Of a stretch of 64,000 nt of DNA, positions 9,251 to 59,795 are shown one piece after another; position 1 is the first letter of the stretch; every line of letters starts with the position of its first letter. The DNA comes from Eledone cirrhosa (Eukaryota): positions 156,736,001 through 156,800,000 of the forward strand of contig OZ024742.1 in NCBI GenBank assembly GCA_964016885.1, in the 5' to 3' direction. The notes beneath the pieces are model-generated. The model had not been told where the DNA came from, searched no databases, and saw only the letters and a list, made by a program, of their open reading frames with translations. The position numbers and the translations under genes were made by a program.

Positions 9251-9349
9251 TATTATAATGCTTTGTGTGTTTGTAAACAAACATCCCGAATTAAGCCTCA
9301 CAGTGTTTAGCAACCATCGTTGCTCTTTTGTTCAACACTGACAAGGGAG

Positions 9350-9390
9350 CGATGTACTAGTCTCAAGCTTATTAGCTATCGTCAGCACGG
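9350..9390 (-). ncRNA. Minimal hammerhead ribozyme, mutated core (GAGA)
   Basis: ccgtg CTGACGA tAGCT aata AGCTt GAGA CTAG TA catcg. Confidence 0.5.
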
Positions 9391-9760
9391 TATACCTTCC
9401 TGCCAGATGATGAACGTCTGAAAGTATATACTTTCCGTATACATATTAAACGGCTGAGCAGCCTAATTTGCATATTGAGTGAGATAATCGGCCGGGCGCA
9501 CCGAAAACTATAAACGGAAAAAATGTATATATGTATGTACGTATACATATATATATATGTTTGTACGTATACATATGTATATTTAAGTAACAGCCGTACT
9601 AAGACTGAGAAATGAAATTTCGTTTCATTTTTTCCGTTTATCATTTTCGGTGCGCCCGGCCGATTAACTCACTCGATATGCAAATTAGGCTGCTCAGCCG
9701 TTAATATGCATCAGGATAGTATATTCTTTTAGACGTTAAATCATCTGGAAGAATGGTATA

Positions 9761-9801
9761 CATTGCTGAGGATAGCTAATAAGCTTGAAACTAGTATATC
9801 G
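9761..9801 (+). ncRNA. Minimal type I hammerhead ribozyme
   Basis: CTGAGGA tAGCT aata AGCTt GAAA CTAG TA; palindromic stem III ACTAGT; stem I weak in this copy. Confidence 0.65.
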
Positions 9802-10185
9802 TTCCTTTGTCAGTGATGAACAAAAGAGCAACGATGGTTGCTAAACACTGTACGGCTTAATTCAGGATGTTTGTTTACAAACACACATAGCATTATAATA
9901 AATGTTCGGTAAATCCATACGTGCATGTCTATATGGGTGCATGTATGTATATATATATACATATATGTATGTACGTATACATACTTATATTTAAGTAACA
10001 GTCGTACTTATAGTTAGAAATGAAATTTCGTTTCATTTTTTCCGTTTATATATATATAGATACACACACATATATATATATATATATATATATATATATA
10101 TATATATATATATATATCGAATGTAGAATATATATATATATATATTAAAATACAAATATTAATAAAATAATTGTTCTTTTGATCA

Positions 10186-10248
10186 ATTACATTTTATTAT
10201 ACATATTTCGGATGTACAACAGTACGTTCTCATCAGACAAAATATAAT
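10186..10248 (-). ncRNA. Minimal type I hammerhead ribozyme
   Basis: ATTATATTTTGT CTGATGA gaacGTAC tgtt GTACatcc GAAA TATGTA TA ATAAAATGTAAT; 12-bp stem I. Confidence 0.8.
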
Positions 10249-11689
10249 GATGCATGTCATACCCTTAGATGTTAAATGGTTAAGATTTAATCAAGTTAGT
10301 GATTAAGCTAAGAGAAAATTCAACATTTATACCCTAATAATGAGAAATGCGAAAACGTAATAAATTCAATAGAGAATGTATGAGTAAGAAAAACCTTGGT
10401 TAATGTGACAACTATTGAGATTTTAAAGTGTATACTACAAGTTATGTTTATTTAGGAAAACATCTCATGAATTATAACAGTCAATGAGAGCCACTGAAAT
10501 AAGATTTGTAGAGAGGGAAAGATAAGAGCGGGTAATATATGCAGAAGGAGATTTTTTTCCGAAAGTTAAACGGTTAAGTTTGAAAATATGTAATTTATGC
10601 AATTTTAGGGTGAAGAATCAAGATTTTAGGTTTTTTTTTAAAATAGCTGGTTATTTATAGTTATTAGTTTTGTAAATTATATAAGTGTGTTAACATTTCT
10701 AAACTTATGAATGTTATGGGGATAACCTTTAAAGGAATTAAATGGCCAGCTAAAAGGAAAGTTTGCACTGTTGAATATTTTCCTAAATGTAAACTTTAAC
10801 GAAGATAATCAATGTCAACATAATCGGTATGTAAAGCTTATGAAGTACTCTATTGTTAGAAATATTTAAATAACGATTTTGTATATAGATATATATTAAT
10901 GAGCCAGTATATATTAAGTAAATGATAACGAATATAAAAATAAAATAATAGATTGAGGCATGCTAAATTTAAATATATACCCATATATAACAGGGTGTAA
11001 ATGCATTAATTATTCATAGTTCGAAATAAACAATAATCAAGAAATTTAGAAGTTAACCAGAAATTGTGTATAGAAAGATATAGAGAGGTATATATGGATA
11101 TATATTAGGTATTAGTGATACAGTATACTTTAGTTAAATGATAACGGTTATAGTTTTATATAATAACATTCGACGTGTTACAGTTAAATGCATATATATA
11201 TATCAGAAAAACAATAATAAATGCATGGATAATTCAGAGTTCAAAATAAGGTCTATAATAATTTATAGTTTGGATATTTGCTCTATATTTGAATCATGGA
11301 TATAAAAATGCAGTAGGTATATTTAAAAACTTAGAAAATATAATTACATACATATTATAAATAAGAGATCAAAAATGTAAACGCATGAGAGATTCACAGT
11401 TAGAGATAAGTTCCGTAAAAATGTAATTAAAATTAGGTAGGAAGATGAAGATAGAGAAATAAAGAAATAATGGTATGGATCAAAGTTAATAATATTATGT
11501 TATGTATATCAATGTTCCGGCGTGTTATTGAACAAGTGTCTTTCATTCTAGCGTTATTTCTTCTATAGATAGTTATAGGATAGTGCAATATTAAAGGCCA
11601 TTAATGTTTTTCCCTATTGATTATATACGCCTGAAAACCAAGTTTTTAATGGTTTAATGTTTCTCTCTCTTTTTTTCTAGTTTTGTGGG

Positions 11690-12318
11690 AGGCTAAAAAT
11701 GTGGATGTAGCTTTATGAAGGCAACTAGAGAATAATTCACTTTTTTGTTATTAATAATGAACAGCGTCTCCATTGTACAGAGCGCGCAGTTATTTGATAT
11801 ACTAGAGTTGCGTTAAACTCCACAGATCCGAAGTTTGTCAAAAGAATGGAGTATTTTAAATTCCTCTCTTTTAATGACCATATGAGCTGTGATAAAGAAG
11901 TGGATGATTTCCTCTTGGAGTTCGAGAATGAGCATTTATGGTTGGCAAATCTGGCTTTAAATGTAGAAGAAGTCGATCATATGTAGTTGTATGTATTGTG
12001 ATCAGATTTTACGGTGCATTTATAAACCAAATTACTATCTAGACAATTATTTTGTAAATGGCAATCAGTTTTATTTCTACAATTACATTTTGGTTTAGTA
12101 TAATTTATGTTAACTCTACTATTAAGATCATTATGCTGGTTTTGTTTTAGGATTTTAGTGTTTAATTTGGCAATATTTTGGGCCATGTTCATAGTTGTAG
12201 AATACGAGAATTTAATGGTATGCCTATTAAAAATGGAATGGTATTTATGGTGAGTAGGGAAAGAGGTGTCCAAAGCGTTAAAGAATAATGTTGCAATTTG
12301 TGTTTTAACTGCTACCGA
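11690..12318 (-). pseudogene. PLE C-terminal GIY-YIG endonuclease fragment (Neptune-like, Cys-rich linker)
   Basis: FPTHHKYHSIFNRHTIKFSYS, CNCRNKTDCHLQNNCL, LVYKC, NYI*ST, FKARFANH, CALCTME; stops and frameshifts present. Confidence 0.8.
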
Positions 12319-57530: not shown

Positions 57531-58230
57531 TTACAGATCAGGTGCGGTCTCAGATGAGGACAGCATCTGAAGATCTGTCTTTGAATTAAGGCAAGCGGAA
57601 GTGTCTCTCAAGTTTAGCAAAATCCTATACTTTTCTGTGGTACACAAAGAACAATTCTTTGTGCCCCTTTGGTACTCCCTCGAATGGTCTAATATAGACC
57701 AATCAATAGAGTACGGGATGTTACTATCCTTGAGTTCCCACACCTTACTTGCGAGGGCCGTTGATGTTCGTTTATCGGAGTGCTTAAAAGAAGCGACATG
57801 TGAGTAAAATCTGGTTTTAAACCTGTCCTGGGTCATACCGACATATCGCTCACTCCTGGCTGGCTGGTTGTTGATTACTGGTGTTATCGTAGCCTCATAA
57901 ACGACAGATTTAGTGTTACATCTACCCTGCAATGTGCATTCGTCCGGCTTCCTGCAACTGCATCCTGGATTTATTCTCGTCCGGTTTGAGCTGGTGATTT
58001 TGGACCTCATAGATGGGCAACAAGAGTAGCTGATCTTGACTACGTTCCTATTAAATATCTTATAGTATCTATGATTAGGAGGAAAATGTTTGTCTAATAG
58101 TTCAAGGAATTTCCTTCCTACATTAGTTTTGACAGTTAGAGAGAAGGGGGGTGTGAACCAAATAATCTTCCTTTTCCTGTTATTGTGGTTAGTTTTAGGG
58201 GGGGTAGGTAAATACTGTAAACTGTAGGTA
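57531..58230 (-). pseudogene. PLE GIY-YIG endonuclease, 5'-truncated ORF fragment (Neptune-like)
   Basis: RKIIWFTPPFS, KISYSC, CSCRKPDECTLQGRC, VVYEA...YVGMT, FKTRFYSH, CSLCTTEK. Confidence 0.88.
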
Positions 58231-58604
58231 AACTGTAGCCATAAATTCACGAGACACTTTCAACAGAACATACCCTGCGCGTATGCGCGCATGCACGCAC
58301 ACACATGTGTATGGGGGAAATATATTTATATTTGTATACGCGTGCGTGCGTGCGCGCATGCACATGCGTGTGTGTGTGTGTGTGTGTGTGTGGGTGTGTG
58401 TGTGTGTGTGTGTGTGTGTCTGTGTGTGTGCGTGTGTGTGTGTGTGTGTGTGTGTGTGTGTGTGTGTGTTTTCGTGTATGTGTTGTTGTATGGGTAGTCT
58501 TATTTTGTTTTTATTTTTTCCTTTCCTTCTTCCTTCTCCAGCCTCACTTTCATATAGCTTGCTTTTTTTGTTTTTAACATCCAAATTCAATAAACAAACC
58601 ACGA

Positions 58605-58670
58605 TTTTTTCGTTCTGAGGATTGAAAGCGAAACCTTTTGCTTTTAAGAAACCACTGGTAAATGGAATAA
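58605..58670 (+). ncRNA. Type I hammerhead ribozyme (right arm of vi)
   Basis: ttttttcgtt CTGAGGA TTGAAAGCGAAA cct TTTGCTTTTAA GAAA CCactGG TA aatggaataa. Confidence 0.85.
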
Positions 58671-59151
58671 TTGCCTTATGTTGTTTATTACATAATAATA
58701 ATTAAGCTCTGTTGCTTACATAGAGCACTCTTTTTTCCTGGACTTTTTCGACGGAATTACTTCATATATATATATATATATATATATATATATATTTACT
58801 TCTGCGATCACAGATTGATTTTTTTTAGATTAACAAGATGACGTTAAGGGTGAAAGCAGCGATTACTTGCTTAAACTTTAATCTGTTTTTTTAATAAATA
58901 TTTGCTCTATGGTTCTTATATATTTAATATATATTTGTCCTTATCGAGCCCTCTTTGGATTTTAGTCTTCACATTTATTATTATTACTATATATATATAT
59001 ATATATATATATATATATATATATATATATATATTAATAAGAGGAATTCCAACTTTGTCTGATTTACTCGTTTTATTTACAATCCTTTAAAATATATATA
59101 ATGGTATTATAATGAAATAGTATGATAGAATATTAAATTCTAAGTGTTAAT

Positions 59152-59190
59152 TGAACAAGTACTTTCATGCTTTCGCAATCTTCAGGTTCA
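59152..59190 (-). ncRNA. Minimal hammerhead ribozyme (left arm of vii)
   Basis: Exact reverse complement of 59270-59308. Confidence 0.85.
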
Positions 59191-59269
59191 TGATATGTGG
59201 TGACAGTCGAGTTTGCTATTTTCAATTTCCACAGTTGAAAATTGCAAACTCGACTGTCACCACATATCA

Positions 59270-59308
59270 TGAACCTGAAGATTGCGAAAGCATGAAAGTA
59301 CTTGTTCA
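59270..59308 (+). ncRNA. Minimal 39-nt hammerhead ribozyme (right arm of vii)
   Basis: TGAAC CTGAAGA tTGC GAAA GCAt GAAA GTAC TT GTTCA; GNRA loop II; palindromic AAGTACTT stem III. Confidence 0.85.
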
Positions 59309-59795
59309 ATTAACACTTAGAATTTAATATTCTATCATACTATTTCATTAAAATACCATTATATATATTTTAAAGGATTGTAAATAAAACGAGTAAATCA
59401 GACAAAGTTGGAATTCCTCTTATTAATATAATCTTCTATACACAATCATACACACCCGTGTATATTTACCTATCTATATCTATATCTATATATATATATA
59501 TATATATATATATATATATATATATATATATATATATATATATATATATATATATATATATATAATATATATATATATATACATATACATATATTCATTT
59601 CATTAAATCTAAATAGTGAGTTTGTAAATTTGGAGAGTCGCCTGTTTATTACAAGATCTTGACAAAATTTCGGTATTGAGTACACTTTACTCTCACCCGT
59701 CAACACATACGATTCTATATAGATATTAGGTGTACGTGATGTTGTTTCGTATTAAATGACATTTAAAAGCCTGAATAATATCATGAAATATTTAC

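Follow-up and report, generated by a model that had tools for sequence, protein, structure and literature searches.

Fold-back insertions of Penelope-like elements in Eledone cirrhosa and their probable origin by twin priming

Seven fold-back insertions and their parent families

We analysed a 64 kb repeat-rich stretch (hereafter the window) of the 3.0 Gb genome of Eledone cirrhosa, positions 156,736,001 to 156,800,000 of contig OZ024742.1 in assembly GCA_964016885.1. It holds seven insertions, i to vii, each consisting of two inverted arms whose 3' ends point outward and of which only one carries a 3' extension, or tail. What process places two inverted, differently ended copies of a retroelement side by side? 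We read them as 5'-truncated insertions of endonuclease-bearing (EN+) Penelope-like elements (PLEs), each probably produced by twin target-primed reverse transcription starting at two fixed sites on the RNA.

The original prediction, made from this sequence without database searches, of seven such insertions was borne out by masked self-BLAST of the window, which recovered inverted arm pairs at all seven positions with arms 87-100% alike. They are as follows, with clade labels assigned from the protein motifs described below.

i: 9248..10049; inverted pair at 9248-9903, 89% identity by self-BLAST; left arm on the minus strand, ending early; right arm on the plus strand, a partial tandem bearing the tail; retrozyme-like fold-back without an open reading frame (ORF)
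ii: 10143..14787; inverted pair 10156-11560 and 12317-14679, 87-98% identity; long tailless arm on the minus strand, 10143-12316; tailed arm on the plus strand, 12317-14787, split by iii; Hydra clade
iii: 12570..13626; inverted pair at 12627-13626, 91% identity; tail of about 57 nt on the left arm; CX4CxxC/CCHH (Nematis/Neptune-type) fold-back
iv: 49620..51376; inverted pair 49775-49896 and 51236-51357, 100% identical over 122 nt; short tailed arm on the minus strand, 49620-49904, with a 135-nt tail; longer tailless arm on the plus strand; young, Hydra clade
v: 51422..51830; inverted pair at 51429-51731, 87.5% identity; 0.4 kb, tail of about 92-98 nt on the right arm; Hydra clade, centre near a predicted start site
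vi: 55506..58768; inverted pair 55517-55968 and 58231-58688, 95-98% identity; long tailless arm on the minus strand, 55506-58230; short tailed arm on the plus strand, 58231-58768, with a tail of about 68 nt; Hydra clade
vii: 59031..59470; inverted pair at 59043-59417, 97% identity; 0.44 kb, tail of 38-40 nt on the right arm; Nematis/Neptune type, centred on a predicted start site

A tail on one arm only was seen in all seven, as expected; the 147-nt tail of i exceeds that of its family (about 45-65 nt) because its left arm stops early. The claim that most insertions lie in (TA)n also held: five are flanked by it on both sides and i on one, with arrays shared by i and ii and by iv and v. Element iii instead interrupts the right arm of ii and is bordered by a target duplication of 8-11 bp, so both of its arms entered as one unit. 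Target duplications were not callable in (TA)n flanks and are clear only for iii.

Coding sequence for the GIY-YIG endonuclease had been reported in three of the insertions and was found in each.

11845..12339, minus strand: broken GIY-YIG remnant of ii, with a CxCX5C linker
13141..13239, plus strand: final 32 codons of the endonuclease domain of family iii, located in the middle of iii
57497..58232, minus strand: GIY-YIG end of the vi ORF, with 94% identity to an unbroken frame of 714 aa at another place in the genome

A Penelope-like origin is supported by the parent families, with their reverse transcriptase (RT)/GIY-YIG ORFs (none in i), tandem pseudo-long terminal repeats (pLTRs) and hammerheads. 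They comprise Hydra-clade PLEs (ii, iv, v and vi), PLEs of Neptune or Nematis type (iii and vii) and the retrozyme-like family i. A single ORF with RT and, at its C terminus, a GIY-YIG domain is uninterrupted in vi (714 aa) and iv (759 aa) and broken in v, iii and vii; a search with the vi endonuclease fragment reaches many unbroken frames of 714 aa, at 95-96% identity. Partial tandem (pLTR) organisation was seen at loci L140, L147, L160, L189-190 and L318-319, and the pLTR contains a type I hammerhead with a short palindromic helix III. The hammerhead stems differ wholly between families; of the about six sequence-distinct families originally counted, ii and v are related at 75-78% identity.

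The clade assignments rest on motifs. The vi protein has RWK, DKT, CSCRKPDEC (CxCX5C), CxxC and CxH and lacks CCHH; the iv protein has RWR, DKT and CNCRNKANC and otherwise the motifs of vi. The ii linker reads CNCRNKTDC (CxCX5C), with ii 76-78% like v, and v aligns along the vi ORF at 31-38% identity. Families iii and vii have CX4CxxC linkers (CIDKKCITC and CNDSRCATC) and CCHH endonucleases, which place them in the Neptune or Nematis type, defined by a CX2-5CxxC linker together with CCHH; we take iii to resemble Nematis and vii to resemble Neptune. Pfam returned GIY-YIG for vii (E=5e-6), weak RVT_1 for iii and vii, and no match for the Hydra-clade proteins, including the 714-aa vi protein. The published Hydra-clade signature of RWK-like and DKT motifs and CxCX5C without CCHH (PMC8557442) argues for assigning ii, iv, v and vi to that clade, with which they also share CxxC, CxH, (TA)n targets and hammerheads. 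Published units are under 3 kb, whereas those here measure 4.3-6.6 kb, owing to long microsatellite-rich 3' untranslated regions (UTRs), and reach thousands of copies per family. A cephalopod family, Hydra-1_Obim, is listed in PMC8557442. The Hydra endonuclease query gave 68,986 first-look candidates besides the 714-aa frames at 95-96% identity, which points to a very large and recent Hydra-clade expansion in this genome.

Fold-back frequency and the distribution of tails

How often do these families take the fold-back form? Unbiased sets were made from the first loci on one contig with an exact 25-29-mer motif present in both arm types: 40 loci of family v (1,483 genome matches), 37 of vi (3,751) and 37 of iv (7,122), with up to 10 kb fetched for each and locus structures read by eye. 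Head-to-head fold-backs account for 26/40, 18/37 and 25/37 loci, respectively. The total of 69/114 is a lower bound (at least 61%), since nested insertions push some partners outside the fetched stretch. The fold-back had been proposed as the rule; it is the commonest form, at about 50-70% of loci, but not the only one.

Two precise 3' ends, a tailed and a tailless one, recur within every family, and both run into (TA)n. One family iv locus holds two events, bringing the number to 70; L181 and L302, whose outer end is unclear, and L288, which ends at neither site, were set aside. Among the 67 events with both ends resolved, 64 join a tailed to a tailless arm, two are tailed at both ends and one is tailless at both, an excess of one-tailed events over independent choice of ends with p=3e-16. 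Single copies that are not fold-backs occur in both the tailed and the tailless kind. Family vii, where loci were picked by similarity, agrees: 15/26 are fold-backs, 13 mixed and 2 two-tailed. These figures, with the head-to-head geometry, support the suggestion that the insertions arise in a stereotyped way, by head-to-head joining of two cDNAs.

An automated count of end motifs gave 74 mixed, 2 tailed-tailed and 8 tailless-tailless among 84 pairs. On inspection, all eight tailless-tailless calls and one of the two tailed-tailed calls proved to be motif miscalls, false matches or a nested copy. Hand counts were retained; the script had missed the true tailless-tailless case, which spans two fetched stretches.

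The layout itself is not new. Complex EN+ PLE insertions, with an inverted 5'-truncated copy at the 5' end, often a tail at one end, and (TA)n, have been described as typical of PLEs (PMC8557442, Craig et al. 2021), and head-to-head is the most frequent PLE arrangement (PMC3846280, Arkhipova et al. 2013). Also common to those accounts and ours are the pLTR hammerhead, target duplications of 8-10 bp there, and TATA/initiator-like pLTR motifs. In the passages compared the tail is optional and 30-40 bp long, and no frequency is given; here tails measure 38-135 nt. New here are the near-strict one-tail rule established by count, the proportion of fold-backs, and short arms that end at a predicted start site.

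Could such pairs be assembly artefacts, or independent insertions that met by chance in common (TA)n arrays? In favour of this, different families do gather in one array, and in one pair the arms match at 100% over 122 nt. Family iv neighbours within 10 kb are nevertheless head-to-head in 30 cases, tail-to-tail in 1 and tandem in 4, a 30:1 preference of the first over the second, and both the same-source arms (below) and the target duplication round iii argue against chance. Raw reads of two other samples of the same species, from another study, were compared with the family iv junction. At each of the 3' sites 419-544 reads have a loose end that continues into (TA)n; there are also strand-switch joints at 6537/6538, the pile-up A described below, and tail-to-inner joints. 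Reads across the 6537/6538 joints are few, 2-7 per joint, and the comparison addresses the family and not each locus in the window; the 6537/6538 joint also occurs in contigs of a second organism. At family level artefact is refuted, as originally predicted, and this explanation is hardly credible. Tail-to-tail arrangements of same-family copies were noted at L147 and L153, the latter a larger symmetric duplication.

Arm asymmetry, start sites and the mode of insertion

In about 17 fold-backs one arm consists of scarcely more than the tail and faces a longer tailless arm. Neither arm can copy the other, so two independent primings are needed and self-priming is ruled out as a general route. 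That route, proposed in PMC3846280, has one cDNA or antisense RNA folding back at a palindrome and copying itself. It would suit the near-symmetric third or so of fold-backs and the several junctions that fall on palindromes, notably in vi and v. It cannot yield a short tailed arm opposite a longer tailless one, nor arms that begin kilobases apart, and the symmetric centres of iv, v and vii coincide with the predicted start site; we regard it as quite improbable. By hand count, the tailless arm is the longer in 18/22 strongly asymmetric events (p=0.004), as expected if an outer RT trails an inner RT on one RNA.

The arms of one insertion are nearer each other than the median other copy in 55/59 pairs. 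This bears on the strongest rival, dual priming on two separate RNAs from the same source locus, with each half of an asymmetric dimer set to one start site. Such a scheme would give long overlapping arms without strand displacement, for example the 3.5 kb at 99.9% identity at L189-190, and would accord with arms of one source where a single locus dominates in a cell. By itself, however, it predicts neither the excess of tail-only arms nor the greater length of the tailless arm, and arms from different subfamilies are almost absent (4/59 pairs at or above the median distance). We consider two RNAs unlikely, and a single RNA the better reading.

Where do the arms stop at their 5' ends? Pooling all loci fetched, beyond the unbiased sets, 5' ends pile up on one initiator-like A in iv (TCATT; 17/80 arms exactly, 37 within 9 nt of the core), v (TCACT; 13/69) and vii (ACAGTT; 12/20 within 1 nt). 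A TATA motif lies 31 nt upstream of this A in v and vii. Family iii shows a broad cluster of 5' ends (14/46). The pile-up A is likely the transcription start, and the 0.4 kb palindromes would be two run-off cDNAs joined. At the family iii loci L221-L250 the clustered 5' ends lie 5-20 nt upstream of a AAGATGGCG motif, which we take to be a YY1 site positioning start sites.

The central junctions of 26 short iv fold-backs vary from copy to copy and have insertions, some of them with repeated 5'-end snippets. Each therefore records a fresh event, and the earlier suggestion of a unit like a miniature inverted-repeat transposable element (MITE), taken as one that propagates, is not supported. On that account the short palindromes would form a non-autonomous lineage spreading as a unit and acting as bidirectional ribozymes. 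In its favour are copy numbers in the thousands (iv has 7,122 exact motif matches) and similar sizes within the short class. A MITE is a fixed unit re-mobilised with the same internal sequence, and such a unit was not found among these heterogeneous junctions; arms starting at +1 moreover lack the upstream TATA, and the hammerhead fold is disfavoured by 71-83 kcal/mol (below). The idea is very improbable.

A GCTCC motif lies a few bases past the outer start in tandem junctions of iv, v and vi and is a candidate protein-binding signal. If it is needed, priming would take place at pLTR-leader junctions, and long arms would call for a longer tandem, a template jump or a circle.

The observations behind twin target-primed reverse transcription are the fixed tailed and tailless 3' ends of each family, the head-to-head geometry, the one-tail rule, the same-source arms, the (TA)n targets and the one target duplication. 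We propose that insertion begins when an RT-GIY-YIG protein, probably dimeric, nicks the two strands of an AT-rich target. One 3'-OH would prime at the outer site and give the tailed arm; the other would prime at the inner site, 40-135 nt upstream and most likely on the same RNA, and give the tailless arm, its cDNA usually running further. Each cDNA may stop at random, on a palindrome or on reaching the 5' end of the RNA, the last giving the symmetric 0.4 kb class. The two cDNA 3' ends would then be joined, sometimes with slippage, and second strands filled in. Twin priming is familiar from L1, where two primers from one target break act on one RNA and yield an inverted product. There, the second site varies and the segments are free of overlap; in the families studied here both sites are fixed, and overlap between the arms is frequent.

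Several points weigh against this proposal. Later conversion could also account for the similarity of paired arms. In many fold-backs the tailed arm overlaps the tailless one by hundreds to thousands of bases, which on one RNA requires strand displacement, and the data do not tell one RNA from two sibling RNAs. The start sites are motif-based predictions; families vi and i lack a pile-up, iv lacks a TATA at -31, and a cap-derived G is present at the 5' end of only about five family iv arms. About 39-45 of the 114 loci have no partner in the 8-9 kb fetched. Three events of the unbiased set break the one-tail rule, as do two tailed-tailed pairs of family vii, and L121/L122 and L165/L168 are probably duplicate loci, without which 62/65 events are mixed.

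The closest experimental system is the anole PLE PAc Poseidon, which in vitro cuts and extends both strands, with a dimer model, and whose RT starts at two sites bounding the tail (PMC11167929, Frangieh et al. 2024). Cutting and extension of both strands, two tail-bounding starts, an AT-rich target and a predicted dimer are thus common to that system and our proposal. PAc Poseidon belongs to a different clade, and that study reports no difference in start site between strands and does not show two cDNAs being joined; our genomic data imply coupled starts, one at each site.

Hammerheads, the retrozyme-like family and neighbouring repeats

A strict type I hammerhead descriptor run on the window gave six matches, all within the elements (iv right, v right, both arms of vi and both of vii), against an average of 0.12 in 60 block shuffles. 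The other arms, judged by eye, carry the motif damaged or in part. The prediction of a hammerhead in both arms therefore stands for the motif, of which the left arm of iv retains the 3' half only, and not for its integrity, several of the 14 copies being mutated.

9761..9801, plus strand: i right, intact core, stem I weakened
9350..9390, minus strand: i left, GAGA instead of GAAA
10190..10243, minus strand: ii left, intact core, weak stem I
near 14590-14645: ii right, broken core, CUAUUGA for CUGAUGA
13430..13472, plus strand: iii right; mirror copy 12781-12823, minus strand
51171..51313, plus strand: iv, 10-bp stem I, 104-nt stem II region, palindromic helix III
51627..51691, plus strand: v right; left copy 51470-51534, minus strand, partly mutated
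58608..58667, plus strand: vi right; mirror copy 55538-55597, minus strand; both satisfy the descriptor
59270..59308, plus strand: vii right; mirror copy 59152-59190, minus strand; both satisfy the descriptor

The iii hammerhead has a 4-bp stem I and is not reported by the strict descriptor. In iv, the 5' strand of stem I contains the initiator-like A on which genomic arms pile up. Between families pairing is preserved in the distinct stems, and helix III takes the form of a short palindrome, in keeping with published PLE hammerheads (PMC4209133). Rfam listed no hammerhead among 130 matches at E<=5 in the window, most of them hairpin or microsatellite miRNA models under gathering scores. Single hammerheads fold with weak z-scores, -0.3 to -1.4 for intact copies, so that fold stability speaks neither for nor against them. 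The vi 3' UTR contains at 56995-57089 the 3' half of the hammerhead and the tailless end a second time, in diverged form (81-93%), and such a duplicate occurs in most long family vi copies.

Would these ribozymes cleave transcripts from either strand, as had been supposed? Since the 3' ends point outward, a transcript from either side yields the antisense arm first. In folding calculations, the hammerhead fold within a fold-back transcript costs 71 kcal/mol in vii and 83 kcal/mol in v. Arm-arm pairing is thus predicted to block the hammerheads, and the palindromes would be dead ribozymes and potential double-stranded RNA (dsRNA). Minimal PLE hammerheads with such a helix III are reported to be inactive as monomers and to need a tandem partner (PMC4209133), and in the anole PLE cleavage required protein and was dispensable for insertion (PMC11167929). 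We propose that the hammerheads are passengers from the pLTR.

Family i has a tandem unit of 423-435 nt (spacings 423 and 435 nt) at 35-36% GC, partial tandems and a type I hammerhead whose stem I continues beyond an internal loop; no extension into an ORF was found in 26 loci of 3.3 kb and 4 loci of 10 kb. This fits the description of non-LTR retrozymes, low-GC, ORF-less tandem units of 150-450 nt with a type I hammerhead (PMC7229834). Metazoan retrozymes (PMC7229834; Li et al. 2026, preprint 10.64898/2026.07.22.740005) resemble it in size, GC content, absence of ORF, hammerhead and partial tandems. Family i differs in occurring mostly as fold-backs with the PLE one-tail footprint. In the main text of Li et al. 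the words "tail" and "integration" occur zero times and "inverted" once, in a reference. Among the similarity-picked family i loci, 19/26 are fold-backs, 16 of them mixed, 1 two-tailed and 2 without both ends resolved. The copies share flank sequence with one another on either side, which we read as other repeats.

A broader reading, which we hold only tentatively, is that at least three PLE clades use obligate coupled twin-priming on a single RNA, that the short palindromes are strong-stop-like run-offs to a capped 5' end, and that the family i footprint (one-tailed in 16/17 resolved fold-backs at loci other than the window's) is direct genomic evidence of retrozyme insertion by PLE proteins.

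The remainder of the window is rich in other repeats. Old, diverged family iii-related remnants lie at 480-750 and 1005-1076, one of them stopping at the tailless site before (TA)n. A repeat of 1.3-1.8 kb occurs three to four times in 1286-6062, its copies being 84-90% alike, with a 67-nt internal palindrome at 2583-2649. Another broken PLE RT region, 41% identical to a frame in L125, lies just upstream of i at 7710-9239. Positions 19280-47000 form a dense block of other retroelements, with two related RT copies with zinc-finger/nuclease ends at 19280-22419, 27237-29804 and 35718-37865 and another at 22757-25700; several broken endonuclease-RT copies on the minus strand of this block are presumably L1/Tx1-like. 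Beside v, at 51863-52017, is a small hairpin with arms of about 45 nt round a (TA)n centre and no hammerhead, of which no further copy was found among the loci fetched.

The origin of inverted and tailed PLE insertions is named as an open question in PMC8557442 and PMC11167929. Thousands of young copies make the footprint countable in this genome; through the one-tail rule, the greater length of the tailless arm and the pile-up at start sites, what was a qualitative description now yields predictions testable in the existing in vitro system. The value of the finding lies in counts that constrain an unsolved integration mechanism and in a retrozyme-like family with the same footprint. Long hairpins, present by the thousand in an animal genome, are also likely to give rise to dsRNA. 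On the ORF-less family i, the one-tail footprint would link retrozymes to PLE proteins by mechanism and not by sequence likeness.

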